DNA of 64,000 nucleotides from Schmidtea nova (lineage: Eukaryota). The notes below the pieces were generated by a model. That model searched no databases and was not told the DNA's origin. It saw nothing but the letters and a program-made list of their open reading frames with translations. Location of the stretch: assembly GCA_044892505.1 (NCBI GenBank), contig CM097882.1:247380001-247444000 (forward strand). Direction: 5' to 3'. Positions 34,895 through 61,072 of this stretch are shown here, piece by piece (position 1 is the first letter of the stretch; every line of letters begins with the position of its first letter). Both the position numbers and the translations under genes were made by a program.

Positions 34895-35421
34895 TGCTGG
34901 GATTATGGGTGGGTTTTACGTAATTCAAATAAACAATTAATCATACTAGGGATTCCGCGCCCATAACCATACATAACATGACTACTACACGCGTATGCCC
35001 TTGACTATTCCCCACTAGTCAAGTTGGTACTGCATACGGTGGTGGAAAAATGATGGGCAGGTGAGCTTTGTCGCCAAAACTACTCCCCATTTATCTTCCC
35101 TCGGGTTCTTGCTGCCGATAGAAGGTCTTACGCATTTACATTCTATGGATGTTCGTTTCCTACTGAATTTTATACTACATATCCCTATGATCTATCACAC
35201 GCTTTTCCCAATGACGCTCTCCCTCGCTGTTCTACAAGCCTACGAAAACTCTCGCTGCTAAGTAACGGTCGGTGTAGGTTTTACGATGCGATTTTTAGTT
35301 CTACGAATTACTTATGTAGTCTTATTTTATTTAGTGAAATCACACGATGAGAGAAAAAATTTACACAGTAATACTTTATTAAAATAATAAAGACAGGTTG
35401 TTATGTTACATGGAGATTTTC

Positions 35422-36006
35422 CTATTCAAACTCCAGGCTAATCTCCTGGATTAACTCTGCTTCGGTTAAGGAGTTCAGGTGGTGAATTTGTTCGTCCAGG
35501 CGCCTTGCAAATTCTCGGCGACGACGACGCTGTCGCGATCCCATTCGATGTTTTCGAAGCTGTGGGTTTATGGCCGGTGCTGACGCTATTGTTCTCGGGG
35601 GATCACTGGGAAAAATAGGCAAATCTTCCGTTGTAAGAGTGGGTGCCATGATGATTTCCTCTTCCGTCCCGCAAGCGACATCTTGGTGAGTGCATTGTAT
35701 CCAGCGCTGAGCCGTGATCGGCCGGATTAGCGCTCGTAATTCGGAGTCGATGTAACTTCTTGTTACTGCGTTCAGGCAATTTCGGAGTTCTCGCTGGACG
35801 GCATCTAATTCCAATTTGGTTGTAGCCAATGCTTCCTGCACTCGCTCGAGTTTTTTCGACTGGTCCTTCATCTGTTCGGGCGAGAACCACTTCGCTTTCA
35901 ATTCATCATTGGCGACCGTGAGTCGCTTGATCTGTCGCTGCTGGTCCCTCAGCTTTCTCTCTTGAATTTGTCCCATGATTTTCTTCGAATTTTCTGAAGT
36001 CGGCAT
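35422..36006 (-). CDS. LTR-encoded 194-aa coiled-coil protein with an Arg-rich motif (3' LTR copy)
   Basis: ORF track. N-terminal coiled coil; RKHRMGSRQRRRRREFARR. A diverged homolog lies at about 9.4-9.9 kb. Confidence 0.72.
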   Translation of the reverse strand: MPTSENSKKIMGQIQERKLRDQQRQIKRLTVANDELKAKWFSPEQMKDQSKKLERVQEALATTKLELDAVQRELRNCLNAVTRSYIDSELRALIRPITAQRWIQCTHQDVACGTEEEIIMAPTLTTEDLPIFPSDPPRTIASAPAINPQLRKHRMGSRQRRRRREFARRLDEQIHHLNSLTEAELIQEISLEFE

Positions 36007-36322
36007 GTTGTCTGAAGATTATAACGATAAATTCACTGGAGGGCCTATCAACAATGTTATTTTATTTAAACAACTATTATTATTATTAAACGAGATGTAT
36101 ATTAATGTTTTTAATTGTTGAGTTCTCTACAAAATTATTTAACTATCTAATCATTGAAGACTAAAAAGGTTTATTGAACTAATTTTATATTAATAAATGA
36201 ATTTCCTAATGACTATAACAACTACAATACTAAATCTACATGACAACACTATTAACAAAACGAACATTTCAGAATTCTTTAAAACATTTATTTAATTTAA
36301 AAACAGGCGGCCATTGATTCAG

Positions 36323-36799
36323 CTATTCATCCTCGGTCATTTTTCCTCGATACGAAAATACCGAGCGGATCTGCAAATTTGTATGGATTCCTGTGTTATT
36401 GGACGAGGCCTGCTGGAAACGGATTCTCTCAGCTTCTCGGAGGGGTCGGATGGCTGTATTGAACTTGAACCCCAATTCCTTGAAGGTAGAGGCTGGAATG
36501 AACCCCCAATAAATGACACATCTCGGGAATCCACCTTTGTCCAACATCATGATGAACCAGGCGGCGTGCCATGATTCGTATTCCTCGTCTGGAATGATTG
36601 GCCAACTAGCGCATCCCCGGTACCATACGTGGTGCCGTGGATGGTCCCATACTGTAAATGGACAGGCGGTTTCGAGCTCTCGGCGCCATGCCCACATCTT
36701 TTGATGGATTTGCTGTAAAATCTCGAAAGGAGCCGGCTTTAATGGGCTAACTCGGGCTCGTTCTTGTCGTTTTTTGATAGTGTATCTATGCTTAGCCAT
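36323..36799 (-). CDS. LTR-encoded 158-aa protein of unknown function (3' LTR copy)
   Basis: ATG-started ORF in a GC-elevated block with AT-rich flanks. Confidence 0.6.
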   Translation of the reverse strand: MAKHRYTIKKRQERARVSPLKPAPFEILQQIHQKMWAWRRELETACPFTVWDHPRHHVWYRGCASWPIIPDEEYESWHAAWFIMMLDKGGFPRCVIYWGFIPASTFKELGFKFNTAIRPLREAERIRFQQASSNNTGIHTNLQIRSVFSYRGKMTEDE

Positions 36800-38345
36800 G
36801 ATTCCAAAACGATGCTGAATTTTATAATAGTTACAATTTACATCAATAATTAATCATAGTAAATGTTATCTCTCATCGTGATTCCTCTATTATTTGCCTT
36901 CCCCTTAGACCTTAGCTGAAATCAAGAAAAAACTGTTGTTTGTTACAGTATGCATTACTCTCGTATCTACTTAGATTTATCTGTTTATGATCAATTTGAT
37001 AGACGAAAAAATGATGATTTGTCTGCTTGGATTTTCAAAATATTGGTACCTCAAAACGGAAACTCTCTCCCGTCATGTATCCCTAGTTTATTCGAAAAAA
37101 AAACGCTCTTTTGTACCAAACGCGGTCGACATAATTTTCCTAAGGTTTATTAGACGTTTATTAAACAGCGGCGCTATGGTGAGGGTGAAAAATTGTGCCT
37201 CCTCCCGGTTAACAACTTCTTTCATATCTTTAAGCTTTATCAAAAAATTCTCGTCCCCTCTGTAGCTAAAATGATCAGAAAATAATTTTCCGGATTTGTT
37301 GGGTGTCCCATGCGCAAGTCTCAACCACTACTGATAAAATTATGCTTTACTATTTATTACTTTACCGTGTGTGGAGCCCTCGAGCACCACGCCACGGACG
37401 GACACCTTGGGAACCTAAAGCTCCCAACGGCGCAAAATTAATATGATCATTATATATTTTAATGTTGAGTCCAATCACAATAACGTTTAATTCATATAAC
37501 AAATTTCAACACATGAATGCATAAACACATAAATAATTAGATCAATAGATAAATGACAAAGCAAATGACACAATCATGAATAAAATAATACAGAAACCAA
37601 AATACCTAATTCGTCTGGGTTTGCTTCGATCGGTTCGTCTAGAATTCAAAGTCTATTTGATTAGTGAGCTAAATTTTACACTCTCAACTGACGTTGTAAG
37701 ATTAGGTATTAAGTCTGTTTTATCCAAAGTCTGATCAGTATTTATACTGATCAGTCTGATCTAGACTGACCAATCGGATTTGGCCGATTTCATGGTGGGT
37801 TTTAATTATTGTTTTTGATTCTAATTAATTTTTATTTTTTTAGATTGTATTCTTCCTTGGAGGTCCGGGTTTCAAAAACAATTATTCAATAACAAGTACT
37901 TTTATTTGGTTTTAATTATTATTATTTGTATTTTATTTGTTTTTAGATGTCTCCTGGGCCCGTTAATATCTATAAATTCATTTATTTTTATTTATAGCTT
38001 GTACTTAGTTATTCTATATTTTTACTATATTATTCCTTTCTTTTAATAAATAAATATTCCCCTTTTTACCTTATTTTTCTCTTTTTTGTTTTAATTAATC
38101 TACTTTTATTTCATTTTTTTCTCTATTTGGCTGGCCCAACATCACTCGGGGACCCCTAAAATTGCGTCCCGCAATTAATTATACATTTACACCTATATCA
38201 TCATACATAAAAATTAAGCAGATAAATGTCAATTTACATATACACAAAGAATCACGTAAGGTGATAGATTTTATACGTAAGCACAAAGTCATATTATTGT
38301 TAAATGTAAGTGGATCATACATAAAGTGAATGTAATATATCAGTT

Positions 38346-38918: not shown

Positions 38919-39000
38919 ACTGTTTTCTTTACAGGTAGGTCAATACAATTTGATACTACATTTCATACAATTATTTACAAAAATATATTTTCCGCTTTAT

Positions 39001-43543: not shown

Positions 43544-46500
43544 TCACATTGTTAATATGAGTGCTAAACATAGTAATTCTGCTTGGTAGGTCACTCTTTC
43601 AGTTTCATTTGTGGTTACTCTTACTTCGGGCCTGTCTATGGTAATTTGTATAGTTGGCGTTGTTCGTCTGTCTATTGTCTGATGTTTCTTGTTTTTTGTT
43701 CCTTGTGTCTCTGTTCTTCCACACTTTCTTACGACATAGTCTCCTTTGGATGACTGCTGTACTGTTATGGTTACTTTGGGTGTTAGGTAATTTGCACATG
43801 CAATTGTCTTATGTGATCTCGGATCCTTTGGTTTCCGAACGGTGCACATTCTGTACCAAGTATCTAGCTCTAAGTCATCGATCTCTATGATTTCTTGTTC
43901 ATATTCTGAGATCCTGCAATCCATTGGACTATTTTGTCCCGATATTTTGTCCTTTTTTGACCAACATACTCGTTCGATTCCTTTTGCGTTTCCAATTTGT
44001 ATTGTCGCTTTTTCTTCACATATCATTCCTTGAGTTGGACTAATTAAGGTCATGATTACCGTTAGTAATAATAGTTCTGGTTTAAAGAATGGGTTTATTG
44101 TTTGTTTGTAGCCTGTTCTTTTTACTTCGTTTTTATTTTTATAGTTGTTGTTTCTTTGTTTCCCAAATTCATTGTTCTTATCATTTTTCTCTGTGTCCCT
44201 TCCTTTCTCTTCACTGTCCTCTTTATCTGATAACTCATGATCCTCTGGATTTTCTCGAGTACTATCGTCGTCGTTTCCTGTATTGTCACCTCCCCTTTGG
44301 TCGTTGAAAATGTCGTCCTCGACATTAACTGCTTCTATCATTTTTTCATACGTTATGGTTGTGAGTATACTTGCTTCGTATTCTTGTGTTACTGCCTGCT
44401 TAGGTATTTCCTTATCGGTTAATTTACAATCTAGAATCTCTTTCTTGGCTTTTATCCAATTATTAAGGTACGTTTTCATTAGTTCTTTCCATTTGTCCGT
44501 ACGTTCTGTTTCCTTTGGGTTGTTTGTGAATCGTAAATCTTTTCTTCTCATGAAGATGTCTATTATCTTTGGCCATTTGTTTATTATTAATGCACACTTT
44601 ATATACAAATTTTGGCCTTGTTCCATGCACTCGTTGATCCTGAATGCTGGTTCATTGGTGTTTGGGTTCATCCAATTGAGTATTGCTTCAGTTAGTTCAG
44701 CGTTATGCATCATGGAATGTACGCTAGCTTTTTTAACTGTCCTTGTAAGGTATTCTATTTCCTCCTGATTTGTGATTGTTTTTATGAAATTTATCACCTC
44801 CCAATTGTGCGCTAACAACGCTACGTCTAGTATTGAGCTGTCTTTGTTAGTTCTTCCCATGAGTCCTGCACCTGCTTCGTACAGTTCCTGTAACACTCGG
44901 GTTTTTGTGTTCGCTCTTGCTGCGAATATCATGAGGGTATCTCCCTTTTTATCTTTCATGTTCATGTCACTTCCGCAATCTTGCATCAACCGTGCAATTT
45001 CGACTACCCTCCTATCTTTTCCTGCTCGTAAGGCTCTATGTATTGGCAATACTCCATTCTTTGTTAATAAGAAAGTCACTGGCATTTCTCTTTTTATGAT
45101 CATCATATCGTTTTCATTGTAAGTTCCTTCCGCATATGCGTGTACCTTTTCCACAATTGATCCGAGTATCTCCAGTGTATGTTTAGAATTCTCGAATTCT
45201 GGTAATAGTTCTTTTGCTTTGTCCTGTATCGCATCTAACCTTTCTTGATATGGTACCTCTGCGCTGAAAAGTGGTGTAAATTTCCTTTTGCTTTCTCTTT
45301 CCTTTCGACCTAGGAATTGTTTGCATTTTTCGGGGTGGTTTAATATGTCTACTAGTTTGTCATACTCTTCCTCCACCGTTTTGTACTTATCTTGAAAATT
45401 GGATATATCTTTGTAAGTTATCGACTTGGTTAGCGATTTTGCACACCATTCCCTAATTTTCCTGAATAATGCTTCTTTTTCGCTTTCGAATTTACACTCC
45501 TCTTTGTTTTTGGAAATTGTGATCTTTCTTCTGTCCAATAATATTAACAGTGTTTTCTGATCACAAACTAATTTTAATAGGAATTGAAATAACGCGTTTT
45601 GTCCTTTACTGTATACTTCGTTTATATTTAATACCCATGTATCATTTTCGGATCTTTTCCATTTTATTAGCTTGCGTATTGTTTTGCAGTTACCGATTTT
45701 TATTGCCTCCTTGATTATATCACCTTTGATCAGTTCGTCTATTTCCCAAGTGGCCTTCTCGATTATTTGTTTGAGCATTATCTGATTTGAGCTCCATATT
45801 GCGTGATTCAAGACTGTTTTGTTTTCTCTATCGCGTTCCGTCCAGTTGAAATCGGCATTTATCAAAAGGTCTATTATTGCTTTATCCGATTTGTAGATGG
45901 CTGCTACCATTAATGGTGTTTCTTGTTCGCTATTCCCAAAACCAAGGTGTTGGTTTGTTTCCTTAGCGATTTTTAGAAATTCTTTTACTCTCTCTACTTC
46001 TCCCCATTTTATGGCGTTATGTAATGCTGGTTGTCCTCCTATGTCTTCTAGTGAAAGTATTTCTGGAATCTTTTCCAGTAGTTCTGAAATGACTGGTTTT
46101 GTTGGTAGTCCCCTTGCGTAATCACTAATTATCGACTGAATATCTCTTAATATATCGTCTCTGACATGCCATTTTCCCATTATTTCTCTGGCTTTTAGTA
46201 CAATTTCCTTGTTTCTTTTTTCTCGTTGATTGTTCTCTGCTTCGGTACTTTCATTGGTTGCTCTGAGCATATTCATTCTGGCTGTCTGGGATCTGGTTAT
46301 TATTCGTTCTTCTGGCGCTGTGGTTATTGTCTTTGGTACTTTTTTACATCTGCATGTATTAACGTATATTGGTCGTATCAATGGTCGATTAACAAGTTTT
46401 ACCTTCACATTGTTTTCCTTTTTGTATATAACTTCGTAAGGGCCTTTTCCTGGTCTTTGTAGTTTTTTAACGGTTCCTGGTATTATTTCTGGGGTTTCTA

Positions 46501-49500
46501 TCATCACCCAATCTCCGGGTTTAAGATCATTTGTTTTAACATTTTTCTTTTGATCGTGTAGGTCCTTGTAACTTTCTTGATAAAACTTTATGTTTAGTTC
46601 TGCTGTCTTCCATATCTCTTGCATTCGTTCTTTGAATTTGGTGACGTAATCATCTTCCTCCATATATTGAGACAAAGGTGGTTGATATTCAAGATCTATT
46701 GGCATATTGCATTCCCTTCCATACATTAATTGAAATGGACTCAATTTTGTTGCTGCGTGTATCGACATTCGGTATGCCATTAGACATAGCTTTATGTACT
46801 CATCCCAATCTGTTTGGTGTTTGCTTACATAATTGGATAACATTCGAATCAATGTGCCGTTAAATCTTTCCGTTTGTCCATTAGTTTGCGGATGATATGG
46901 TGACGTTCGTAATTTGGCTATTCTGAAGTAATTTGTTACTTCATCTAGTATTTCGCTCATAAAATTTGTTCCTTGATCTGTTAGTATTTGTTTCGGGGTT
47001 CCGTATCGACAACATATTTCCTCTACTAAAATTCTTGCTACGGTCTTTGCTTTTTGATCCGGCATCGCAAATGCTTCAGGGAATTTAGTCAAATAATCCG
47101 TTATTACCAATATATATTGATTCCCGTTTAAACTTTCTGGCAATGGTCCTATTACATCCATCGCAATGGTAGTCATTGGTTCCGCTGGTATTGGCATGGG
47201 TTTTAAGGGATTTTTCCATTTCTTCCCACTATCCTTTCTTGTGGCACAAGTTAAACAGTTCTTTATCCATTCCTTTACGTCTTCGTCCATTGTTGGCCAA
47301 TAATATTTTTGTCTCATGCGATTTAATGTTTTCTTATCGGACATGTGTCCTCCCAACTTTCCGTCATGGTATTGAGTTATTATCTCTTTTCGTCTATTAC
47401 CTGGCAGACACATTAATCGTTTCTCTCCATCTCGTATTAATAACCATCCTTTTTCTATTGTGTATCGATGTTGGTATTTCCTCATGTGTTCCTTTAACTC
47501 TGCATTGTCTTTGAATACATCCATATTTCGTGAGCTTAGGAATTCTATGATGGGTCTTAGTTCTTTATCCTCTTGCTGATCTTTCTTTAACTCACTGAAA
47601 TCCAAATCCTCTGCTATCATTATGCATATTCTTTGCACTTCTGGGTCTGTTAGTTCTGGAAACGTTAATCTTGACATGCAATCTGCGTTGGCATTCGCTT
47701 TTCCTGATTTGAATTTTATATCTGGTGAATATTCTTGTAATTGCATCGCCCATCTCATTAATCTGCTGGATGTTTCCTTATGTTGTCCTAGCCATACAAG
47801 TGGTTGATGGTCTGTGGTTATGCATATGACGTGTCCCCATAATAGATATTTGAAGTGTTTTATTGCTAATATTATTGCCAATGCTTCTCTTTCCGTTACT
47901 GAATAATTCTTCTCGTGTTTCTTGAATGTTCTGCTATAATATCCGATTACCCGCTCTTTTCCCTCGTCATCATATTGTCCTAACACTGCTCCTGCTGCAT
48001 ATCCACTTGCGTCGGTTGCGAGTAAAAATGGCTTTTTGAAGTCCGGGTGAACCAATATTGGTGCAGTTATTAGCTTATCTCTCAATGTTTCAAAGGCTGT
48101 TTGTTGTTCGCTTCCCCATATGAACGATACGTCTTTCTTTACTAGCTCCTGGATTGGTTTTGCAATCCCTGCGTAATCCTTTATGAATTTTCTATAGTAA
48201 CCGCATAATCCGAGAAATTCTTGGATCTGCGTTATCGTCTTTGGTACTGGACATTCTTTTACTTTATCAATGTTTCTGGGATCTGGTTCCTTTCCTTTTG
48301 CGGACACAATATGTCCTAAGAATGTCACTTTCTCCTTTGCCCAATCGCATTTCGATGGTTTGAGCTTGAGTTTCCATTGTCTCAATCTAACAAATACATC
48401 TCTGATATCTTGGATGTGTTGTTCAAATGTGCTTGAGTAGATCAGTAGGTCGTCAATGTAAACCATGCATTGTTTTATGCCGTGGGTAACGAAATTCATA
48501 CATCTTTGAAATGATGCTGGCGCATTGGTTAGTCCGAATGGCATTTTCCTAAATTGGTACAAGTCTCTTCCGATAGTGAAAGCAGTTTTCTCTTTGTCTT
48601 CCTCCTTCATTTTAATTTGCCAGTATCCGCTTTTCAAATCCAATGATGTAAAATATGCCGCTCCTTGTAATGTCAATAACATCTCGTTGATGTCCGGTAA
48701 TGGGTAGGTATCCCTTTTTGTAACTGCATTTAATCTCCGATAATCGATACAAAATCGTTGTGTTCCGTCTTTCTTTTTCACCATTACAACTGGGAATTGC
48801 CACGGTGAGCAGCTTGGTTCAATTACTTCTGCGTCTAGCATTTTCTGTACCTCTGCTTCTGCTACTGATTTTTGCGCTTCAGCTAACTTGTATGGTCTTA
48901 ACGCAATAGGCGTTTCGTCTGTTAGGGGAATCGTATGTAGTGTGACGTCGCATGTCCCTAGATCTAAATCGGATGCTGCGAATATATCTTTATATTCTAT
49001 CAGTAATCTTTCTAGCTGCTTCTTTTGATCCTCATTTAATAGTTGGCTATCAATGTTCCAAGTGGGTTCCTCCTCTTTTACTCCTTCTTTTATTGGTATT
49101 TCGATATCCATCATTGGAGTTAGTTTACCTAGTCTTTCATTTTCATAAATTATTTTATCCTCTTCATCGAAATTTACTACAGTTATTGGGATTTCTCCGT
49201 TGTCATTCGCACTCACTAATCCCCTTGCCATTGGCAACGACTTTCTCTTTTCAAATCTTTTACTGGGTTCAAAAATCATGTCACCTTCTATTGTAGGGTC
49301 TATTTTTACGAAGCATATTTTCTCTCTCCGTGCTGGTACGATTATTTGTTTCGAACTTGTTACTTTTGCTTCTATTGCGCATATCTGTCCTGTCCTATCC
49401 TTTAATCTCATTGTTCCGAGGTCAATAACTATTTCTTTAAATAATGCTGGCATCAGATCCGTGCCTATAATGCATGGTACGCTCAGTGCTGGTATTACTG

Positions 49501-52500
49501 CTACGTACGTTTCGATTTCCGTGTTTTGATGTTTTATCTTTACCCACCATCTTCCGGCAACTTCTACTACTTCTTTACTGCATGCTATTACGTGAACGTT
49601 GGTTCTCTCAATATCCCGTCTTTGTTCTTGTGGTATCCATTTTATATCTATTGCTGAGATATTTGCTCCTGTATCAATCATCGCTTCAATTTCCCTTCCG
49701 TTAATTTCGATTGTTGTAGTTAATACTGGACCGGTGTTTGATGACATTACTGCAATTGTATGTGAGTCTCCTTGCGGATCTACGCTTCTGCACCGTCTCG
49801 TTCTATAGTCTTCTGGTATCATAGGATATATGTTTGTCATCGGCATCATTTGCATTGTATTTTGTCTCATCCCTGGTGTTGGTTCTTGGTACATGGTTGG
49901 TGGGGGTGCGTAACACTTCCACATTTCCGCTGGATTCTTTTCGACATACTGTGGTACTTGATTTTTAAATACTTGACCTCCTTCGTTATCATCATCATCG
50001 TCGTCACTGGAATCGTCTTGGGTTCTGTACCCTTTCATTCTTTCCCATAGTCCTTTTCTCTCTTTCTTTAGTTGTTGTCTTGCTTGCTCGTTATTCATTA
50101 TCTTTTTAAATTTTCGTCCCACCTCTTCATCGGTTCCTTTCATTTTTGCCAGTATTTTTAGGAGTCTCTTTATTCGGTGAATATCTTTTGAATGACCGTG
50201 TAATACCATTGTTTTAGCCAGAAATGGTAAGAATCCTACCACCAATTTCCAATTTACTTTCTTTTCTCTTTTATAGATGTCAAAACAGGCTAACATTTGC
50301 GTTATTATTACCCGTATTATTTGTATAATTAGTATAACACCAAGTATTCCTGCCATCATTTGTCCAAATATTAAAAATCTTCCCCACATCGCTTTCATCA
50401 TGTTTTCCGTTGCCTTCTTAAAGTGGGCTGGTGACAATAATAATTCGTAATTTGGTCCACCTTGGTAATTTGTTCCTCCTGTTATTGTTACAATACTGGA
50501 TAACACCGCTTCTCGTCTTGCCGGAAATAGTATGTTTTGTCTTGCTGCTTCTAAATCCTTTGCGCTATAGAATCCCATATTGCTTACGTCTACGTCTTTA
50601 AATTTTCGTCCTTTTGATAGTTGCATCAATTCAAATTCCCTTGGTGCTGGTACCTCTGTTCTTGACGGAAACATAACCCAATTTCCGTCTGGTTTTTGGT
50701 ATAGTGGTCCATATGCGTTGCTGCAATTGAAAGGGTTTGGTTCGAAACTTACTGGATTTATGATTCTTGTCACTGGTTGTACATATCTTACTTTCCCTTT
50801 ATATTCGATTTCTAGTTCGTTAGTACACTGACCTGGTTGTAGTTTTGTCATTGTCGCTACCTTCGCATTTGTCTTTTTACATATGTATACGTACATGACC
50901 TCTCCGACTACTCTTCCAAAATGACCTTCTCTTAATGGTAATAATGGCATTGCACTATCCGGGTTTGTGATTGCTACTGCTAATTTTGTCTTTAATATTT
51001 CCCTATTTAATATGCAATCGTTGTTTATTAAATCGTAATACACTTTTTGTAGTGACGCTTGTCCTCTATGGAATAGAAAATCCATTTTATTGTTCATGTA
51101 AAGGTGTAATTTAACATCGTTCGTGTGTACTTTGCGTTTCGCACTAGGTACTTCTTGTTTTGATACAAAAATGCCGGGGTAGTTGGTTTCCAACATGGCT
51201 ACTCCGCATTTCAAGGCTGTTTTTCCTTTTACAAACCTCATTCCGATATCTGCATCTGAGGTAATTAGTACCGTTGGTGTATTTCTCATTTTAATTTGTT
51301 TTTCTTGTGTTCGGGTTTCAATCTTTTTCTCTCCCCGTACTGTGTCTTGAAGTATTTTTCCTCTTGCTGCCTCGTCTTCTTCTTCCTCTTGGAAGGTTTT
51401 CCCTTGTATCTCATCGAATTCTGCTTCCTTTAACAGTTGTAGTTGACATTCCTTCCCTCGTATCTGGTAGGTTAGGGTTGACATACCAGTCTGACAAGTG
51501 TTTGACTCGATTTTGCACATAGGTAGAGTTTTCATTTCTCCCGTCGTTGGATCGAAGAATGCCTCGTACGTTTTTAGTTCCACTGTATACGTATCTATTA
51601 CCACTAGGTTTGTTGCTGCTACTCCGAATATTGGATATGTTGCTCCTTGGCAGTACCCTTCTCCTCCCGTAATAGCTCCTGCTACATAATATGTTTGTTG
51701 CAATATCACTCCCGTTTTTCCTCTTATCTTTACTCTATCTCTAGTCTCTACTTCTCCATGTTTAAATAATTTTTCACAGTCTTCTCCTTGCAGCATTACC
51801 GATTCTCTTTCCGTTCCTGGCATCACGATTGCTGAATAATGGCGGTGTCCACAATAAAAAGCAAATCTGGTTTTATAAACTTTGCATTCTCTGACCATTG
51901 TTCTTATCAGTTCAGCTTCCTGATATACGTGGTATAATTGTCTCTTTTTTAATGTTTTTAGCTCCGTTGGGGTTGCGTCTTTACATTGTTCTGTCCCTCG
52001 TAATGAGTATTTTTCACCTAATGCCATTTGATCACAATCGAATACTTCAAATGCTGTTGCTCCGTCAGTACTAATCATCCATATTAACATCATCATAATG
52101 ATAGAACTCAGGTTTAGTGATGATTTCCCGTTTCCTGTTCCCGACTTTTCCTTTTCCAATTCTCCCAATATCTCTTCGAATTTCTTTTTCATATTTTTGG
52201 CTTGGTTTTTCTTTTGGTTCGTTTTTGTGAATGTTTCCCATCCTCCTTTACTGATGATGTACGGTTCTATTTCTTTCTCTATAATTTTGGCTGTATTCTT
52301 TATATGTCTTTCAAGTGCTGTGGGTTTCAGTCGACCTCTACTCAGTGTCAGCAGATTGTAGATGGTGTATGCCATAGCTATTAAATATTTGTTATCCGTC
52401 TCTGCTCCTTCCGTTAACTTCTTTATCAACATCGTGGTTCCTTGCCAATCTAGGTGGTTTGACCTTGTCTTCTCTTTTATTAGTTCTGGTAGGATTGGTG

Positions 52501-55500
52501 CGATGGCGCTATGCAGTGATTTCGCCCTTTCGCTTATTTCATTTATTCTCCACCATTTCTTTAATTCCGGATCGATTATTGCCAGTATTTCCATTAACAT
52601 CTTTGATATCCATTCCTCGCCTTGGTATGTTTGTGTTGTTTCTTTTTCTTTCGTTACGGCTATTTTATTTAGTTTCTTTAGACACAAATCCCATTGATCC
52701 CGTCTTTTTTCCTCTCTTGATTTTATAACTACATTTGCTGGATCCATCTTGGGTCTACCTCTAGGTCGTTTATCCATTGTCGTGCCCGTTTCTACTAATC
52801 TTGTTTCTCGTCCAGTTTCTTCTGTGACGTCTCTTGGTTCATTGGCTCTTTCTTCTAACCATCTTTCCATTTCTTGTGTGAATTGTACGTTTTCTACATT
52901 TGCCCTCCTTGCTTCCTCTTCTGCTATTTCATTTACTTCTTCGATGATTATTTCTTGTTCAACTTCATCTTCGGTGTTGGTTACCGGTATTGCTGTTGGT
53001 AATTCCTGAATTCTTTCGAAAATATTATCATCTTTCTCTTTTGTTAGCTCTATTAACTCCTCTAACATATCATCGCTATCTGTAAAAATTTCGTCTACAT
53101 CGTATGGTTCTGGTGGTGTTCTTTCTCTTGTCTCTCTTGGTGTTGTTCTAGCTTGTTCTGAGCTTGTTCCTGGAGTCCTTACCGATTTCATTGGGCTCGG
53201 CGTACTCATACTTCCTTTTGGTTTCTTTTCCTCTTTCAATTTCAATGGTTGACCTGCTATTGCTGCTACTGTCAATGTATTTGCGATATCTAATTGCGCT
53301 GGCGTTATTCCAATTTCTAAGCTGTTATCTAATGATCGTCCTTGGTGTTGTAAATGGAATGGTGGTTCATATCTCAATTTCTTTTTAATGTCTCGAACTT
53401 TCTCCGCTATCCCTACCCAAAACTCTTCCTTTTCTTGGTTCGGATATACTATTCTTAGGTGTACTTTCTGTGGCGATTCCTGCGAGAATTCTTGGTTTCT
53501 CCATTTTTTAATTACGTGATCCAATTGTTCTGGACACCACTCGTTAACTCTTTTGTATTCGGCGATTGCTTTTGCTACTTTACGCAAGCATGTTATGTCT
53601 TCTCCATTAACTACGAAAAAATCTGCGAGACCTTTTACTACTTTTCTCTTGCCGTGCGCATTGGTTTTTAATATTTCGACAAATTCTTCCGTTTTTTGTT
53701 TTTCTCTTTCCAACCACATGGTTGTCGTTTCTGGTCCGTCTAAATCTGCTGGCATGGCTTTTCTTGTTACCATACAGACTCTTCCGGTTTCCGGTTTGTG
53801 ATCGTCTTCTATGCCTATTCCGTATTCCTCTTCGTATTCGCCTGCTTTTGGTTCCCAACATTTTCCTCGTTCGTTCCATTGTTTTTCTACAGGTGTTCGT
53901 AATCGTCTGTTGAGATTGAGTTCTTCTAATACATCTTCCCATTCTGGCCAAATCCGCCAATTTCGATAAATGTCTACTATTTGTTGTAATTTATGCACAA
54001 CTTCTTTTTGTCGTTCCCGTTCTCTTTTCTCATCCTTAGCAGTTTCTCTTGGTGTATCGTCCATTCTGATAACGTGGATGGTTTGGTGATTATCCCATAT
54101 ACCAATTTTATATAGCCGTCTTTCATCGTGATCCCATAATACATGTTCGTTGTATTTCATGATTATGTCATCTTCCCATTCTTCTTCTGGTTCTCTTTGT
54201 AATAGTGTCTCGTTGATGACATTTACTAATTCTTTTATGGTACAATCTGCTACCACTTCAATTTCTTTGGTATCCTCATTAGGTAACTCTACTGCAATTT
54301 TCAGATCTGTTATTTTCCCTTGTCTGAACATTGCTTTTCCCATTTTTGCAATTACTTTTCCGTATGAGATCTGTGACCATCTCGTGTGACTTGTGTCACG
54401 TATGCATTCGATACATCGTTTCAACTTTTCGTATTCGCTTCTCATTAACTCCTTTCTATGTTTTTTGATTTGTGGGATGATTTGTTCTATCATGGAATTT
54501 AGATTTCCTCGTAAGATTCGTCCTTTCTCATATTCTAACCGTGGTTTTATCTTCCTCTCGAAACACATATTTGCTTCTTTTGCTACTTCTTGTAGGTTCT
54601 CTTCTCTCTTATCATCGCATATCGATAATGTTGTCACCTCTCCTGGCCATATGCCTGTTTCTATCAAATGCGTCCTTTTCTTCACTAGTCCATTCTGTGA
54701 ATAGAGGAATTTGTTTTTATATGAACTCCCTAATCTGTCTTCCACCCATTGATAAATATCTTCCGTGAGTGGAGTTTTGATCCAAATCCTTGGCAAACAT
54801 GTTTTTATCTCTATTAGGATTATATATTCATGGAGTGGTTCTTTTAATAATTTTCCTACGTATTGGCTTAGTGTTTCTACTTCCCGGCCTGGTAACCACT
54901 CTTTATAGTTCATTTGTAATATTGCTCTCATGAATTTTCTATAGTGTTTCTTGTCAATGAATTCCTCATTATATATTACTTCTAGCGTATTATCTAATAA
55001 TTTCTGGATCTCGTCTTCTTTTACTTGAATAGTTTCTGGTGTCTTTACTACTTCTATCTTTTTGTCTTCAATTTCCGGTTCGTCTAGCATGTCCCCTGCT
55101 AGACTACTGACGTCACTATCCTCTTCATCGTCTGAAAAATTCTTTGCCTGGCCTCTCAACATGTTAATGTGTTTTATCTGGTTAATTTCACTTGGTGTAT
55201 TTTCCGTTGGTCTTGTTTCACTTTTAATAGCTTTTTGTGTTGATTCACTCTTGTCGTCTACTACTTCGACCTTTCTCAATTTTCGTTCTAACTCGTCTAT
55301 TTCTCCCAACCGTCTTCGTATCATTTTCCCTTTAAATATTCGACTGATTCGTGTTTCGTGACGCACTGGCGATGGAATTCCTTCTGGTTCTATTTCCTTG
55401 ATTACCATCACATTTCTTTTTGTCTCTACTACTCCCATGTTTTCCCATGTATCCGTTAGTTTCAATTTTACTTCTGGTGCACCTTCTATTTTTAGGAATG

Positions 55501-57523
55501 CTTCTCTGGGCAGTTTCGTTACTCCTGGAGCCATTTCATTCACTTTATTGAACAATATTTCTACTTCTTCCTTTATGTTATATTGGAATCGAAACACGTG
55601 CTTGTTTGGCAAAATTACCATCATTCCTCTTTTCCCGAGTTTCCTTTTCTCTTCTTGGTTCCCTTCTTTTTCTACTTCCTTTTCTGTTTCTTTTTCTGCT
55701 TCTTCATCTTCTTGTATTATCTCTTTTCGGCCTTCGTTGTTGGTTGGATTTGGGTTTGTTGGATTTATTTCTGGTACAGTCTCTTTCTCGTGGGTATTTG
55801 TTTGATTGGTTGCTCTCATCATATTAATTCTTAGAGGTTGTCGTTCTCTTTCTTGCTGTTTTTGTTCCTCTTCTCTTTGTATTCTTGCCCATTCCTGAGC
55901 ATGTCGTGCTTGACTTTCCCGATTCAATCGTTCGTTTTCGCTTTCTATTTTTCTCATCATATTGATTTGTTGTTGACCTGTTTGCGGATTTCCTCTGGTT
56001 GTATTGTTTATCAGCTCCGTCAATCTTTGGACCTCTTGCATTAAATGTATCTCTTTAGTGGTATTTTTATTTTGGTTATTATTATTACTATTTGGTTGGT
56101 TTCCGTATTCCGGTTGGTTTCCATTATTTGGCTGATTTCCATAATTCTGTCGGTTTCCACCAGTTGGTTGGTTGCCATAGTTTTGTCGGTTTCCGGTATT
56201 CTGCCAGTTTCCTCGTTGATTGCTTCTTTGTCCGCAATTTCTTGATAGGTGTCCAGGCCGTCCACAATTAAAACAGGTTATTGTGTAACATCTGCTCTCT
56301 GAATGCCCTTTTACTCCACATTTTCCACAATTCAAGTTCTGATAACATTCTTGTTGCCAATGTCCCAATTTCCCACATGTTTTGCATTGTTTCGTTGGTC
56401 CTTGGGGGTTGTAATTGTTTTGATTTCCGTAATTTGATACTTTATTCCCTTCATTCCTTCGTTGCGGTGGTGGTCGGTTTAATTGTTGTGAATTTGGAAT
56501 GTGGTTATTCAGGTTCACTTCTTGTTCGTTTTGTGCTGTATCCATAGCTAAATAGATTCTACCATCATTTCCTATCATGTGTAGTTCAAATCTATTAGCT
56601 GTTTCTAGTGCTTGGTCGATGGTTTTACAACCTTGACATCCAACTTGCGCTCTTATGTCGGGTCTTCTTAATCCTCCCACAAAGATAGCTGCCATTAACT
56701 CCTCATTTATTGGGCTGTCTTGATTAAAGATCAACTTTGCTAACTTTTTCAATTCGCTTGCATATACCGCATTCGATTCATTTATCTTTTGTTTCCTCAT
56801 TGAGAATTCCGTGAATGCCTCATTCAATACTTTATTTATTCCAAAGGTTTGTTGGAAAAAGTCCTTTATCGCTGACCAACTTGTAGGTGGATTAGTTCCA
56901 TTCTTTGCTTCCAAATATAGATCTAATGCGCTATCTTTCAAATATAGCTGAATTCTGCTTACAGTTGTTTCTGGTTTCCACTTGCATACTTCCACGAATA
57001 TGCCAAATTCCTTTAAGAAAGTTTCTAATTTACTCGCATCTCCATTAAACGGTTCTCCGGAAAATTTGTCTTTTATCTCTTCTCTTGGTTCACTCATTTC
57101 GATTCCGCTGTCTGTAGTTATTTTACTTTCGTTTCCTCTTGTTTCTAGTTCACTGTTAGGTTCGTCACTTGAATTTCGGTCGATCTCAGTTTCCTTTGCT
57201 GATTCGTTATCTGATGCTTTACTATCGTTATCGGTGTCGTCACTTTCTGTTTCTTGTTCTACTTCGTCTTCTATTTCTTCTATATAATCGTTGTTGGTTT
57301 TGTCGACTTCTATTTCACTTATTGGGTTTCTCTCGGGTTCTGCTTGATTTTCTTTGTTGCTTGAACTGTTGCTTGTTACTGATAATTTATCGTTTTCGAT
57401 AATCGACTTTTGTATTATTATCTGCCTTGCTTTACTTCCTTTTGGGCCTTTCTGATTATTATTCTTGGTAGCTTTATTCTTTTCTGCTGGTTTTATTATG
57501 ACACTCTTTTCTCCTTTTCTCAA
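43544..57523 (-). CDS. 4,659-aa Gag-accessory-Env-Pol-accessory polyprotein
   Basis: One uninterrupted frame with CCHC x3, DTG protease, YIDD RT, TDASG RNase H and HHCC/DDE/GPY integrase, plus the extra domains listed separately. The track start is TTG; the first ATG is at 57097. Confidence 0.96.
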   Translation of the reverse strand: MRKGEKSVIIKPAEKNKATKNNNQKGPKGSKARQIIIQKSIIENDKLSVTSNSSSNKENQAEPERNPISEIEVDKTNNDYIEEIEDEVEQETESDDTDNDSKASDNESAKETEIDRNSSDEPNSELETRGNESKITTDSGIEMSEPREEIKDKFSGEPFNGDASKLETFLKEFGIFVEVCKWKPETTVSRIQLYLKDSALDLYLEAKNGTNPPTSWSAIKDFFQQTFGINKVLNEAFTEFSMRKQKINESNAVYASELKKLAKLIFNQDSPINEELMAAIFVGGLRRPDIRAQVGCQGCKTIDQALETANRFELHMIGNDGRIYLAMDTAQNEQEVNLNNHIPNSQQLNRPPPQRRNEGNKVSNYGNQNNYNPQGPTKQCKTCGKLGHWQQECYQNLNCGKCGVKGHSESRCYTITCFNCGRPGHLSRNCGQRSNQRGNWQNTGNRQNYGNQPTGGNRQNYGNQPNNGNQPEYGNQPNSNNNNQNKNTTKEIHLMQEVQRLTELINNTTRGNPQTGQQQINMMRKIESENERLNRESQARHAQEWARIQREEEQKQQERERQPLRINMMRATNQTNTHEKETVPEINPTNPNPTNNEGRKEIIQEDEEAEKETEKEVEKEGNQEEKRKLGKRGMMVILPNKHVFRFQYNIKEEVEILFNKVNEMAPGVTKLPREAFLKIEGAPEVKLKLTDTWENMGVVETKRNVMVIKEIEPEGIPSPVRHETRISRIFKGKMIRRRLGEIDELERKLRKVEVVDDKSESTQKAIKSETRPTENTPSEINQIKHINMLRGQAKNFSDDEEDSDVSSLAGDMLDEPEIEDKKIEVVKTPETIQVKEDEIQKLLDNTLEVIYNEEFIDKKHYRKFMRAILQMNYKEWLPGREVETLSQYVGKLLKEPLHEYIILIEIKTCLPRIWIKTPLTEDIYQWVEDRLGSSYKNKFLYSQNGLVKKRTHLIETGIWPGEVTTLSICDDKREENLQEVAKEANMCFERKIKPRLEYEKGRILRGNLNSMIEQIIPQIKKHRKELMRSEYEKLKRCIECIRDTSHTRWSQISYGKVIAKMGKAMFRQGKITDLKIAVELPNEDTKEIEVVADCTIKELVNVINETLLQREPEEEWEDDIIMKYNEHVLWDHDERRLYKIGIWDNHQTIHVIRMDDTPRETAKDEKRERERQKEVVHKLQQIVDIYRNWRIWPEWEDVLEELNLNRRLRTPVEKQWNERGKCWEPKAGEYEEEYGIGIEDDHKPETGRVCMVTRKAMPADLDGPETTTMWLEREKQKTEEFVEILKTNAHGKRKVVKGLADFFVVNGEDITCLRKVAKAIAEYKRVNEWCPEQLDHVIKKWRNQEFSQESPQKVHLRIVYPNQEKEEFWVGIAEKVRDIKKKLRYEPPFHLQHQGRSLDNSLEIGITPAQLDIANTLTVAAIAGQPLKLKEEKKPKGSMSTPSPMKSVRTPGTSSEQARTTPRETRERTPPEPYDVDEIFTDSDDMLEELIELTKEKDDNIFERIQELPTAIPVTNTEDEVEQEIIIEEVNEIAEEEARRANVENVQFTQEMERWLEERANEPRDVTEETGRETRLVETGTTMDKRPRGRPKMDPANVVIKSREEKRRDQWDLCLKKLNKIAVTKEKETTQTYQGEEWISKMLMEILAIIDPELKKWWRINEISERAKSLHSAIAPILPELIKEKTRSNHLDWQGTTMLIKKLTEGAETDNKYLIAMAYTIYNLLTLSRGRLKPTALERHIKNTAKIIEKEIEPYIISKGGWETFTKTNQKKNQAKNMKKKFEEILGELEKEKSGTGNGKSSLNLSSIIMMMLIWMISTDGATAFEVFDCDQMALGEKYSLRGTEQCKDATPTELKTLKKRQLYHVYQEAELIRTMVRECKVYKTRFAFYCGHRHYSAIVMPGTERESVMLQGEDCEKLFKHGEVETRDRVKIRGKTGVILQQTYYVAGAITGGEGYCQGATYPIFGVAATNLVVIDTYTVELKTYEAFFDPTTGEMKTLPMCKIESNTCQTGMSTLTYQIRGKECQLQLLKEAEFDEIQGKTFQEEEEDEAARGKILQDTVRGEKKIETRTQEKQIKMRNTPTVLITSDADIGMRFVKGKTALKCGVAMLETNYPGIFVSKQEVPSAKRKVHTNDVKLHLYMNNKMDFLFHRGQASLQKVYYDLINNDCILNREILKTKLAVAITNPDSAMPLLPLREGHFGRVVGEVMYVYICKKTNAKVATMTKLQPGQCTNELEIEYKGKVRYVQPVTRIINPVSFEPNPFNCSNAYGPLYQKPDGNWVMFPSRTEVPAPREFELMQLSKGRKFKDVDVSNMGFYSAKDLEAARQNILFPARREAVLSSIVTITGGTNYQGGPNYELLLSPAHFKKATENMMKAMWGRFLIFGQMMAGILGVILIIQIIRVIITQMLACFDIYKREKKVNWKLVVGFLPFLAKTMVLHGHSKDIHRIKRLLKILAKMKGTDEEVGRKFKKIMNNEQARQQLKKERKGLWERMKGYRTQDDSSDDDDDDNEGGQVFKNQVPQYVEKNPAEMWKCYAPPPTMYQEPTPGMRQNTMQMMPMTNIYPMIPEDYRTRRCRSVDPQGDSHTIAVMSSNTGPVLTTTIEINGREIEAMIDTGANISAIDIKWIPQEQRRDIERTNVHVIACSKEVVEVAGRWWVKIKHQNTEIETYVAVIPALSVPCIIGTDLMPALFKEIVIDLGTMRLKDRTGQICAIEAKVTSSKQIIVPARREKICFVKIDPTIEGDMIFEPSKRFEKRKSLPMARGLVSANDNGEIPITVVNFDEEDKIIYENERLGKLTPMMDIEIPIKEGVKEEEPTWNIDSQLLNEDQKKQLERLLIEYKDIFAASDLDLGTCDVTLHTIPLTDETPIALRPYKLAEAQKSVAEAEVQKMLDAEVIEPSCSPWQFPVVMVKKKDGTQRFCIDYRRLNAVTKRDTYPLPDINEMLLTLQGAAYFTSLDLKSGYWQIKMKEEDKEKTAFTIGRDLYQFRKMPFGLTNAPASFQRCMNFVTHGIKQCMVYIDDLLIYSSTFEQHIQDIRDVFVRLRQWKLKLKPSKCDWAKEKVTFLGHIVSAKGKEPDPRNIDKVKECPVPKTITQIQEFLGLCGYYRKFIKDYAGIAKPIQELVKKDVSFIWGSEQQTAFETLRDKLITAPILVHPDFKKPFLLATDASGYAAGAVLGQYDDEGKERVIGYYSRTFKKHEKNYSVTEREALAIILAIKHFKYLLWGHVICITTDHQPLVWLGQHKETSSRLMRWAMQLQEYSPDIKFKSGKANANADCMSRLTFPELTDPEVQRICIMIAEDLDFSELKKDQQEDKELRPIIEFLSSRNMDVFKDNAELKEHMRKYQHRYTIEKGWLLIRDGEKRLMCLPGNRRKEIITQYHDGKLGGHMSDKKTLNRMRQKYYWPTMDEDVKEWIKNCLTCATRKDSGKKWKNPLKPMPIPAEPMTTIAMDVIGPLPESLNGNQYILVITDYLTKFPEAFAMPDQKAKTVARILVEEICCRYGTPKQILTDQGTNFMSEILDEVTNYFRIAKLRTSPYHPQTNGQTERFNGTLIRMLSNYVSKHQTDWDEYIKLCLMAYRMSIHAATKLSPFQLMYGRECNMPIDLEYQPPLSQYMEEDDYVTKFKERMQEIWKTAELNIKFYQESYKDLHDQKKNVKTNDLKPGDWVMIETPEIIPGTVKKLQRPGKGPYEVIYKKENNVKVKLVNRPLIRPIYVNTCRCKKVPKTITTAPEERIITRSQTARMNMLRATNESTEAENNQREKRNKEIVLKAREIMGKWHVRDDILRDIQSIISDYARGLPTKPVISELLEKIPEILSLEDIGGQPALHNAIKWGEVERVKEFLKIAKETNQHLGFGNSEQETPLMVAAIYKSDKAIIDLLINADFNWTERDRENKTVLNHAIWSSNQIMLKQIIEKATWEIDELIKGDIIKEAIKIGNCKTIRKLIKWKRSENDTWVLNINEVYSKGQNALFQFLLKLVCDQKTLLILLDRRKITISKNKEECKFESEKEALFRKIREWCAKSLTKSITYKDISNFQDKYKTVEEEYDKLVDILNHPEKCKQFLGRKERESKRKFTPLFSAEVPYQERLDAIQDKAKELLPEFENSKHTLEILGSIVEKVHAYAEGTYNENDMMIIKREMPVTFLLTKNGVLPIHRALRAGKDRRVVEIARLMQDCGSDMNMKDKKGDTLMIFAARANTKTRVLQELYEAGAGLMGRTNKDSSILDVALLAHNWEVINFIKTITNQEEIEYLTRTVKKASVHSMMHNAELTEAILNWMNPNTNEPAFRINECMEQGQNLYIKCALIINKWPKIIDIFMRRKDLRFTNNPKETERTDKWKELMKTYLNNWIKAKKEILDCKLTDKEIPKQAVTQEYEASILTTITYEKMIEAVNVEDDIFNDQRGGDNTGNDDDSTRENPEDHELSDKEDSEEKGRDTEKNDKNNEFGKQRNNNYKNKNEVKRTGYKQTINPFFKPELLLLTVIMTLISPTQGMICEEKATIQIGNAKGIERVCWSKKDKISGQNSPMDCRISEYEQEIIEIDDLELDTWYRMCTVRKPKDPRSHKTIACANYLTPKVTITVQQSSKGDYVVRKCGRTETQGTKNKKHQTIDRRTTPTIQITIDRPEVRVTTNETERVTYQAELLCLALILTM
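43780..44082 (-). other. Polyprotein domain: internal signal-like peptide plus FN3-like domain
   Basis: PELLLLTVIMTLISPTQG|MICEE followed by IDDLELDTWYRMCTVRK..IACANYLTP. Confidence 0.65.
44770..45065 (-). other. Polyprotein domain: ankyrin repeat cluster 2
   Basis: NGVLPIHRAL..GSDMNMKDKKGDTLMIFAA..GAGLMGRTNKDSSILDVAL. Confidence 0.85.
45640..46055 (-). other. Polyprotein domain: ankyrin repeat cluster 1
   Basis: GGQPALHNAIKWG..EQETPLMVAA..RDRENKTVLNHAI. Confidence 0.85.
46340..47420 (-). other. Polyprotein domain: integrase (HHCC, DDE, GPY/F)
   Basis: YHDGKLGGH..CLTC; IAMDVIGPL; LTDQGTNF; NGQTERFN; GPYEV. Confidence 0.96.
47680..49060 (-). other. Polyprotein domains: reverse transcriptase and RNase H
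   Basis: KKDGTQRFCIDYRRLN, LDLKSGYWQI, MPFGLTNAPASF, YIDD (48449-48460), TDASG, ERE and TDHQPL. Confidence 0.97.
49400..49730 (-). other. Polyprotein domain: aspartic protease
   Basis: IEAMIDTGANISAI (DTG at 49667-49675) and IIGTDLM. Confidence 0.93.
50200..52110 (-). other. Polyprotein domain: envelope glycoprotein of the chuvirus G / herpes gB-like type
   Basis: Signal-like IIMMMLIWMISTDGATA|FEVFDC. Cys-rich ectodomain with C..YCG, DCILNR..LAV..NP, GEVMYVYIC and CTNELEIEYKG..PVTRI. TM FGQMMAGILGVILIIQIIRVII. Family assignment is by motif recall. Confidence 0.8.
52222..52620 (-). other. Polyprotein domain: Bcl-2-like
   Basis: BH2-like IEPYIISKGGWETF (cf. Bcl-xL LEPWIQENGGWDTF); divergent BH1-position LDWQGTTML; helical context. 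Confidence 0.6.
52749..52772 (-). other. Polyprotein motif: AT-hook
   Basis: KRPRGRPK matches the HMGA AT-hook core. Confidence 0.6.
53265..55630 (-). other. Polyprotein region with 3-4 ubiquitin-like domains
   Basis: About 53265-53467 HLRIVYP..KVRDIKKKL..FHLQHQGRSLDN..GI..TLTV. About 54068-54302 IAVELP..EIEV..TIKEL..MKYNEHVL..L.KIGI..TIHVI. About 54615-54830 ..DRLG..FLYSQNG..ETGI.PG..TLSI. A weaker candidate lies at about 55395-55630. Confidence 0.65.
56234..57070 (-). other. Polyprotein domains: Gag capsid-like region and three CCHC knuckles
   Basis: FNGDASKLETFL..IFVGGLR; CKTCGKLGHWQQEC, CGKCGVKGHSESRC and CFNCGRPGHLSRNC. Confidence 0.93.
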
Positions 57524-59936: not shown

Positions 59937-59954
59937 ATCCCGGCTGAGCCCCCA
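59937..59954 (-). promoter_or_regulatory. Primer-binding site, tRNA-Pro type
   Basis: Minus strand TGGGGGCTCAGCCGGGAT, 16/18 identical to the classical tRNA-Pro PBS TGGGGGCTCGTCCGGGAT; 6 nt from the LTR. Confidence 0.85.
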
Positions 59955-60487
59955 AATTTATGCTGGGATTATGGGTGGGTTTTACGTAATTCAAATAAAC
60001 AATTAATCATACTAGGGATTCCGCGCCCATAACCATACATAACATGACTACTACACGCGTATGCCCTTGACTATTCCCCACTAGTCAAGTTGGTACTGCA
60101 TACGGTGGTGGAAAAATGATGGGCAGGTGAGCTTTGTCGCCAAAACTACTCCCCATTTATCTTCCCTCGGGTTCTTGCTGCCGATAGAAGGTCTTACGCA
60201 TTTACATTCTATGGATGTTCGTTTCCTACTGAATTTTATACTACATATCCCTATGATCTATCACACGCTTTTCCCAATGACGCTCTCCCTCGCTGTTCTA
60301 CAAGCCTACGAAAACTCTCGCTGCTAAGTAACGGTCGGTGTAGGTTTTACGATGCGATTTTTAGTTCTACGAATTACTTATGTAGTCTTATTTTATTTAG
60401 TGAAATCACACGATGAGAGAAAAAATTTACACAGTAATACTTTATTAAAATAATAAAGACAGGTTGTTATGTTACATGGAGATTTTC

Positions 60488-61072
60488 CTATTCAAACTCC
60501 AGGCTAATCTCCTGGATTAACTCTGCTTCGGTTAAGGAGTTCAGGTGGTGAATTTGTTCGTCCAGGCGCCTTGCAAATTCTCGGCGACGACGACGCTGTC
60601 GCGATCCCATTCGATGTTTTCGAAGCTGTGGGTTTATGGCCGGTGCTGACGCTATTGTTCTCGGGGGATCACTGGGAAAAATAGGCAAATCTTCCGTTGT
60701 AAGAGTGGGTGCCATGATGATTTCCTCTTCCGTCCCGCAAGCGACATCTTGGTGAGTGCATTGTATCCAGCGCTGAGCCGTGATCGGCCGGATTAGCGCT
60801 CGTAATTCGGAGTCGATGTAACTTCTTGTTACTGCGTTCAGGCAATTTCGGAGTTCTCGCTGGACGGCATCTAATTCCAATTTGGTTGTAGCCAATGCTT
60901 CCTGCACTCGCTCGAGTTTTTTCGACTGGTCCTTCATCTGTTCGGGCGAGAACCACTTCGCTTTCAATTCATCATTGGCGACCGTGAGTCGCTTGATCTG
61001 TCGCTGCTGGTCCCTCAGCTTTCTCTCTTGAATTTGTCCCATGATTTTCTTCGAATTTTCTGAAGTCGGCAT
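60488..61072 (-). CDS. LTR-encoded 194-aa protein (5' LTR copy)
   Basis: Identical translation to 35422-36006. Confidence 0.72.
   Translation of the reverse strand: MPTSENSKKIMGQIQERKLRDQQRQIKRLTVANDELKAKWFSPEQMKDQSKKLERVQEALATTKLELDAVQRELRNCLNAVTRSYIDSELRALIRPITAQRWIQCTHQDVACGTEEEIIMAPTLTTEDLPIFPSDPPRTIASAPAINPQLRKHRMGSRQRRRRREFARRLDEQIHHLNSLTEAELIQEISLEFE

Follow-up and report, generated by a model that had tools for sequence, protein, structure and literature searches.

Each long terminal repeat (LTR) of a giant Gypsy element of Schmidtea nova carries two open reading frames (ORFs) of 158 and 194 codons, which raises the question of whether these ORFs are genes and, if so, what genes placed inside an LTR might do for the element. 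We analysed the 64,000-nt stretch of DNA that contains the locus (hereafter, the window; positions are those of the window, and LTR positions are counted from the LTR 5' end). It holds a 28.3 kb Burro-type Gypsy element with two identical 3,247-bp LTRs that have TG...CA ends. Both ORFs, which an earlier note on this DNA had reported for each LTR, are found in both of these LTRs, in sense orientation relative to the polyprotein. The element is laid out as follows:

34891-34894 and 63208-63211: 4-bp target-site duplication (TSD), TTTG
34895..38141, minus strand: 3' LTR, 3,247 bp, identical to the 5' LTR
59961..63207, minus strand: 5' LTR, 3,247 bp
59938..59954, minus strand: primer-binding site (PBS), 6 nt behind the 5' LTR
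43544..57097, minus strand: polyprotein, 4,517 aa; Gag - fusion glycoprotein - PR - RT - RH - IN - ankyrin, Burro type
38346-43510 and 59172-59633, minus strand: six more accessory ORFs (RING 153, 458, 118, TRAF/MATH 460, 353 and 190 aa)
36323..36799, minus strand: ORF158, 158 aa (copy at 61389-61865; LTR 1343-1819); YAG ends at 36815, AATAAA at 36287-36292
35422..36006, minus strand: ORF194, 194 aa (copy at 60488-61072; LTR 2136-2720); acceptor AG ends at 36012, AATAAA at 35375-35380

The flanking repeat has an inverted, 98%-identical copy in the window (1-1233 versus 34165-34895 and 63207-63716) that represents the empty site, confirming the 4-bp TSD of the element. The PBS is presumably tRNA-Pro-like; the PBS pattern has 3,021 matches genome-wide, and a narrower pattern has 641. 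Pfam domains follow one another in the polyprotein in the order PF00098, PF24664, PF00077, PF00078, PF17917, PF00665 and PF12796; the Gag region carries a zinc knuckle, and the env is a Monjiviricetes-type fusion protein placed before the protease. The RING ORF sits between the 5' LTR/PBS and the polyprotein, and the five other accessory ORFs, including TRAF/MATH, are also internal. Accessory ORFs of the 3' array are spaced 33-125 nt apart, with a YAG just ahead of each ATG and, in some cases, an AATAAA at the stop. The 460-aa ORF is MATH/TRAF cargo (PF22486 and PF02176). The element has a RING ORF, and BCL2-like and BIR motifs gave no Pfam match in it at E 0.1. By its layout, the element is of the Burro type. 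In one other copy (L178), the RING ORF is cut off at roughly codon 39, where env-region sequence takes over, as expected of an internal deletion copy. Elsewhere in the window lie pieces that we named by eye: Helitron-like Rep/helicase pieces (11573-16705, minus strand) with a 1,131-bp near-perfect tandem duplication (11918-14181), and broken RNase H/integrase-like ORFs from another LTR element (25482-26883, plus strand).

The substitution pattern indicates that both LTR ORFs are coding. None of 1,000 shuffled LTRs contained a sense ATG-ORF of at least 158 aa. Among the best 150 genome matches to each ORF, internal stops were absent from 148 for ORF158 (91-100% identity) and from 146 for ORF194 (89-100% identity). 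A family-A set of 41 copies was composed of the window copy and 40 copies drawn from among the most diverged ORF158 matches (84-91% DNA identity), and this choice by protein similarity biases the set towards intact ORF158. Across the 41 copies, third codon positions are 3-5 times more variable than first and second positions in both ORFs, and indels avoid the ORFs. Pairwise dN/dS over this set is 0.12 for ORF158 and 0.18 for ORF194, as compared with 1.4-2.5 for shifted frames and 0.6-1.0 for non-coding LTR sequence, and the full-length frame is kept in 40/41 and 34/41 copies, respectively.

Because of the bias of the family-A set towards intact ORF158, we sampled a second time by PBS, fetching 60 loci, of which 12 were picked to cover families and the others were taken in list order. 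Using tblastn, we found ORF194 homologues in 32 and ORF158 homologues in 14 of the 60 loci. Those of the sister families (D, D2, E, F, G and H, the window element being family A) lie nearly all at an equal distance from the PBS, with 21-30% and 25-35% identity to the window proteins for the two ORFs; a 211-aa ORF of families F and G is likened to ORF158 by its position, aligned motifs and one tblastn match (E 0.008). The LTR proteins of families A and F are only 21-28% identical, as against 93-94% for RT-RH (window versus two F-type copies). For the PBS-sampled sister families, dN/dS is 0.09-0.22, calculated from intact ORFs only. We conclude that, judged by these alignments, ORF158 and ORF194 are conserved coding sequences, as the earlier note had proposed in calling them protein-coding; homologues that are 21-35% identical occupy the same place in the LTR.

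Outside this genome, homologue searches restricted to near lengths found no relative of either protein, the Atlas gave no usable match for ORF158 and only scores below 0.9 for ORF194, and the ORF194 alignment, scanned against metagenome and viral contigs, found no relative. Pfam assigned no family to either window protein, with just scattered weak matches among family members, and a sequence search of the PDB with the LTR proteins returned designed helices only.

The two genes are not kept by every lineage. Five F-type elements (L137, L152, L153, L185 and L188) have short LTRs without either ORF, the deletion ending away from the splice sites described below. This ORF-less lineage is present at several sites, and two sampled copies encode gag, env and pol domains in a long frame that is broken. 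That a lineage with pol spread in this form implies that neither LTR gene is needed in cis, and both may be dispensable. Other families share the PBS and are pol-less (L138/L139, L154, L132 and blocks L217-L227). Among pol-less families, E keeps only the ORF194 homologue, B keeps PR and ankyrin and has a 190-aa LTR ORF with a similar basic helix in two sampled copies, and C has gag only and no LTR ORF; in both E and B the ORF194-like gene is kept under constraint. We considered the 190-aa ORF of family B as an ORF194 homologue and rejected this assignment, since homology is unsupported (hhalign 4%) and only the basic helix aligns. At one locus (L136:7136-7480), a truncated H-type ORF194 homologue and the conserved LTR-end element described below stand just behind a family-C PBS; this piece is probably recombinant or nested.

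How the LTR genes could be expressed is suggested by features at the LTR 5' end:

37738..37777 (5' LTR 62804-62843), minus strand: predicted promoter, inverted CCAAT box and TATA box (LTR 365-404)
37606..37721 (5' LTR 62672-62787), minus strand: leader exon (predicted), non-coding, hypervariable and without ATG, reaching to the donor LTR 536/537
36012..37605, minus strand: GT...AG intron between leader and ORF194 acceptor (LTR 537-2130), containing ORF158

CCAAT and TATA boxes occur at fixed spacing in families A, D, D2, E, F and G, and transcription is predicted to start near LTR position 425. The leader lacks an ATG in 35 of 37 scorable copies (3/40 were not scorable), as compared with an equal length behind the donor, which has an ATG in 37/37. 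The GT donor is found at the corresponding place in sister families, and a YAG stands just before each LTR ORF, including in sister families with unrelated surrounding DNA. Across the whole element, a YAG lies within 15 nt of the ATG in 9/9 ORFs (background 0.45; P about 0.001, by hand) and within 5 nt in 6/9 (background 0.20; P about 0.003, by hand).

A copy of the element records the predicted splice. We searched the genome by pattern for ORF194 starts that are not preceded by CAG; 170 of 172 have the native CAG context, and the two that do not are the LTRs of one complete copy (L203/L204, within L203-L207; G000:C1, about 499.30-499.32 Mb), hence one event. In this copy, the leader and the ORF194 exon meet precisely at the predicted donor and acceptor sites, with the junction 5 nt ahead of the ORF194 ATG, and the 1,558-1,560 nt GT...AG intron of close relatives is gone from both LTRs, ORF158 with it. 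The LTRs are 1,748 bp each and differ at 2/1,748 positions, the copy has a 4-bp TSD of its own, and its interior is colinear. A deletion is unlikely to have hit both predicted sites by chance, and hence cis-splicing of the leader-ORF194 intron happens; the spliced RNA can be copied into DNA. Three more junction patterns (ORF158 of family A and both ORFs of family F) returned no spliced copies. The splice to ORF194 is therefore documented by a single event, and the one to ORF158 is a prediction. In four read runs that are DNA-like in appearance, no joint at the predicted splice sites was among the 15 of 21 joints listed. We had considered spliced-leader trans-splicing as likely as cis-splicing for the LTR ORFs and dropped this idea given the exact spliced copy; trans-splicing of other element genes is possible.

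These observations place the LTR genes and define a problem for the element. Downstream of the conserved TATA box, it is 0.9 kb to ORF158 and 1.7 kb to ORF194, and both are behind a working donor. Since both lie downstream of the predicted start, they would be in R or U5 rather than in U3, and our initial reading of them as U3 genes was dropped once the promoter had been placed. An AATAAA follows the ends of ORF158 and ORF194 after 31 and 42 nt, respectively, and may serve each. That 170 of 172 LTRs keep the intron indicates that most of the RNA that is copied is unspliced, although the donor works. A working donor, an intron that is mostly kept and a YAG before 9/9 ORFs together suggest that the element faces an intron-retention problem. 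Because ORFs, promoter and intron are all inside the LTR, a solo LTR would hold the whole unit.

The ORF194 protein contains three features that bear on its function:

35659..35682, minus strand: putative LC8-like motif, aa 109-116, where the disordered linker begins
35500..35556, minus strand: basic helix, aa 151-169, with 10 R and 1 K in 19 residues
35428..35478, minus strand: acidic amphipathic C-terminal helix, aa 177-193, not a canonical nuclear export signal (NES)

The predicted model (pLDDT 77) has helices at aa 3-40 and 43-90, followed by a conserved IRPxT...W turn; from aa 112 onward, pLDDT is below 50, and the linker is disordered and variable (dN/dS 0.6-1.0). The earlier note had read a coiled coil, an arginine-rich motif and a leucine-rich export tail into this protein. 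The long N-terminal helices of the monomer model, with a hydrophobic share of 0.46 at a/d positions, are consistent with a coiled coil, and the oligomer that it would form is putative. The arginine-rich motif, placed at about 35498-35560, is present at 35500-35556 and is strongly constrained (dN/dS about 0.05), with G156 and R160 nearly invariant across families; 11 K/R in 19 residues was reached by 0.16% of 20,000 shuffles of ORF194. The stretch is Arg-rich in families A and F and Lys-rich in family E (8 K and 3 R in 17). The tail, conserved as an acidic amphipathic helix in families A, D, D2 and F and missing from family H, does not bear out the suggested NES. By the class 1a/1b/1c/2 rules, window ORF194 has no strict NES match, though 88% of shuffles have one, and no match is shared across families; by eye, a class-1b fit needs Ala in the first position and is lost in D, D2 and E.

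Within the LC8-like motif, residues 110-115 are invariant in 41/41 family-A copies amid variable neighbours, and a single match occurs at this place in 20/23 aligned proteins, with the pattern drawn from the same sequences and matched by 8% of shuffles. The motif reads TQT in family F and TNT or TST in families E and H, the window variant being non-canonical; TNT, TST and other variants have been discussed as anchors that bind the LC8 hub (bioRxiv 10.1101/2025.07.16.665182). The genome has intronless LC8 genes, and elsewhere in it (G000:C2, 5-45 Mb; L191-L202) some 20 dynein light chain (PF01221) genes, nearly identical and free of introns, stand in clusters.

ORF158 is predicted to form a helix and then strands, with F48, G62, W66 and G110 invariant in the alignment with sister families. 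Its model is of low confidence (pLDDT 45), and Foldseek returned nothing for it at E 0.001. With VIA-align, the same low-confidence model reached a best Z of 3.7, with PUA-associated N-terminal domains (APE0525, eIF2D, MCT-1, Nip7 and RsmF/YebU) among the top 43 rows, a likeness that we treat as a lead only. No fold is assigned to ORF158, which is likely to be a co-expressed small alpha/beta partner or a host-facing accessory protein.

A candidate cis-acting RNA lies at the LTR 3' end:

34932..35133 (same place in the 5' LTR), minus strand: conserved structured element, LTR about 3009-3210

This element of ~200 nt is the most conserved part of the LTR (pi 0.013-0.017) and is common to all sampled families, including ORF-less ones. 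In its hairpins, 18 of 25 pairs have changes on both sides across 16 sequences, which none of 500 shuffles reproduced, the structure being taken from the same alignment. Single-sequence folding of the LTR end is not unusual (z -1.07), and Rfam has no match anywhere in the LTR. The element is perhaps an undescribed cis-acting RNA for packaging or priming, and its structure is a conceivable target RNA for ORF194.

The best explanation of these features would run as follows. From the predicted promoter near the LTR 5' end, transcription would yield a short leader without ATG, to be joined by splicing to ORF194 and likely also to ORF158. By default, the LTR would produce short spliced ORF158 and ORF194 mRNAs, probably ended at their own AATAAA, and a full-length RNA would have to pass a donor about 110 nt from the start, nine acceptors and several poly(A) signals. 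ORF194 is promoter-proximal, spliced, basic and probably oligomeric, which makes it a natural candidate for letting full-length RNA through: as a nuclear, oligomeric RNA-binding regulator, it may enable the intron-containing 25-kb genomic RNA to escape splicing and early polyadenylation and to be exported, with the helical oligomer stabilised by LC8 and the basic helix acting in the nucleus. We favour the reading of the LTR as a two-gene transcription unit whose ORF194 would be a Rev/CERV-like regulator of intron-containing genomic RNA, at somewhat less than even confidence. The specific role in the escape of unspliced RNA from processing is drawn by analogy and is, to much the same degree, tentative. 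Against export, there is no NES match, and the Lys-rich basic stretch of family E fits a plain nuclear or nucleolar signal. The spread of the F-type lineage without either ORF, the single splice event and the lack of similarity to Pfam families or, generic helices aside, to solved proteins also count against this reading; the constraint on the ORF194-like gene in the pol-less families E and B counts in its favour.

The same features can be read in other ways. The basic helix might bind LTR DNA or nascent leader RNA while the acidic helix recruits host machinery, making ORF194 a Tat/Tas/N-like activator of transcription or read-through. The promoter-proximal, spliced gene, the conservation of the acidic amphipathic tail in A, D, D2 and F, and a long transcript with AATAAA behind several genes all suit such an activator, but family H lacks the tail, the hypervariable leader would be a poor TAR-like target, and just one of 23 ORF194 family members has a bZIP match (E 0.075); we think this unlikely. 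We regard as equally unlikely the proposal that both LTR proteins, in the manner of the element's TRAF, RING and ankyrin cargo, face the host and antagonise its piRNA/RNAi, apoptosis or innate signalling pathways, with the basic helix only a nuclear signal or a non-specific RNA binder. It would account for the divergence between families A and F, far above that of RT-RH, and for the loss of both ORFs from a lineage, and in planarians SMEDWI-2 is reported to keep Burro RNA low (PMC8532177). Purifying constraint within families is strong, however, no excess of amino-acid change is seen outside the linker, and Pfam recognises no captured host domain in either ORF.

ORF194 might instead act in the cytoplasm, helping in packaging or transport as an adaptor or RNA chaperone: LC8 would bind a helical dimer whose basic helix holds the genomic RNA, in a layout like that of mononegaviral phosphoproteins. 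The LC8-like motif, found once and in the same place in most aligned proteins (TQT in family F) and invariant in family A, speaks for this, as do the conserved structured RNA adjoining the PBS and the Monjiviricetes-type env. Yet the motif pattern was drawn from these very sequences and is matched by 8% of shuffles, the window variant is non-canonical, and Gag already has zinc knuckles; we consider such an adaptor distinctly improbable. That the ORFs are untranslated by-products held open by recent amplification is highly implausible. The selection of family-A copies by protein similarity does favour intact frames, but the third-position excess and low dN/dS recur in the PBS-sampled families, diverged homologues stand in the same place, and the exact splice ends 5 nt before an ATG.

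The preferred reading, of ORF194 as a regulator of unspliced genomic RNA, can be set beside known viral regulators. HIV Rev, HTLV Rex and lambda N are short proteins with an Arg-rich helix, and Rev and Rex are made from a splice from the promoter leader. ORF194 resembles them in being short, in its Arg-rich helix and, for Rev and Rex, in being spliced from the promoter leader; it differs in lacking a conserved leucine-rich NES, in being Lys-rich in one family, and in its long N-terminal helices and LC8-like motif, and we detected no homology. The Rev-like analogy of the earlier note thus holds for the spliced RNA and the constrained Arg-rich helix and fails for a conserved NES. Its second comparison was with LTR genes. 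Nef, MMTV Sag and foamy Bel/Bet have coding sequence inside or overlapping the LTR, in U3, at the 3' end of the RNA. This analogy is not supported, given the position of ORF158 and ORF194 downstream of the predicted promoter, start and splice donor (R or U5), inside or behind the LTR intron. Genes behind a promoter inside the LTR would occupy a position that is not known for other LTR genes.

Among retroelements, the closest comparison is Burro/GYPSM1 of planarians, a giant Gypsy-like element of about 28 kb with multi-kb LTRs and a mononegavirus-like fusion protein between Gag and PR (PMC6431247). The window element shares the single giant polyprotein, ankyrin repeats and TRAF/MATH and RING accessory ORFs, and the section of that paper on the element describes no LTR genes, intron, promoter or spliced expression (PMC6431247). 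In the window element, TRAF is a separate downstream ORF, and BIR and BCL2 are without a Pfam match at the threshold given above. None of the papers returned by our literature searches deals with genes or introns within Burro LTRs, and the supplement of the original Burro paper (Grohme 2018) or Repbase may draw these ORFs. New here are the selection data, the sister-family alignments, the promoter placement and the exact LTR splice; we provide exact donor, acceptor and start-site predictions and, aligned with their sister families, two orphan protein families. In the way that they are expressed, the largest LTR retroelements may resemble complex viruses, many genes being joined by splicing to one short leader, the first two of them inside the LTR; and if solo LTRs express ORF158 and ORF194, many host loci could supply both in trans.

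The nearest functional parallel is CERV of the Gypsy/Ty3 element Cer1 of C. elegans, which is made from a spliced mRNA and needed for genomic RNA export, as proven by mutation (PMC10309623). The likeness lies in a novel protein from a spliced mRNA, with a helical zipper and a basic signal, and in an RNA with working splice sites that has to be exported; CERV differs in its 517 aa, in sharing exons with gag and in its globular M and G domains (PMC10309623). ORF194, with 194 aa and wholly inside the LTR, is likened to CERV by description and not by sequence. A bolder version of our reading, which we find doubtful, is that the Burro LTR is a self-contained 'early' operon of promoter, leader exon, intron and two genes in R/U5, such that any LTR, a solo LTR included, can make a trans-acting regulator. 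ORF194 would then be a Rev equivalent that evolved independently, a helical dimer zipped by LC8 whose basic helix binds RNA; under its action, a 25-kb transcript that has nine splice acceptors would cease to be processed into single-gene mRNAs and would be kept as full-length genomic RNA. ORF194 is a candidate for another Rev-like function among Gypsy elements, CERV being the first.
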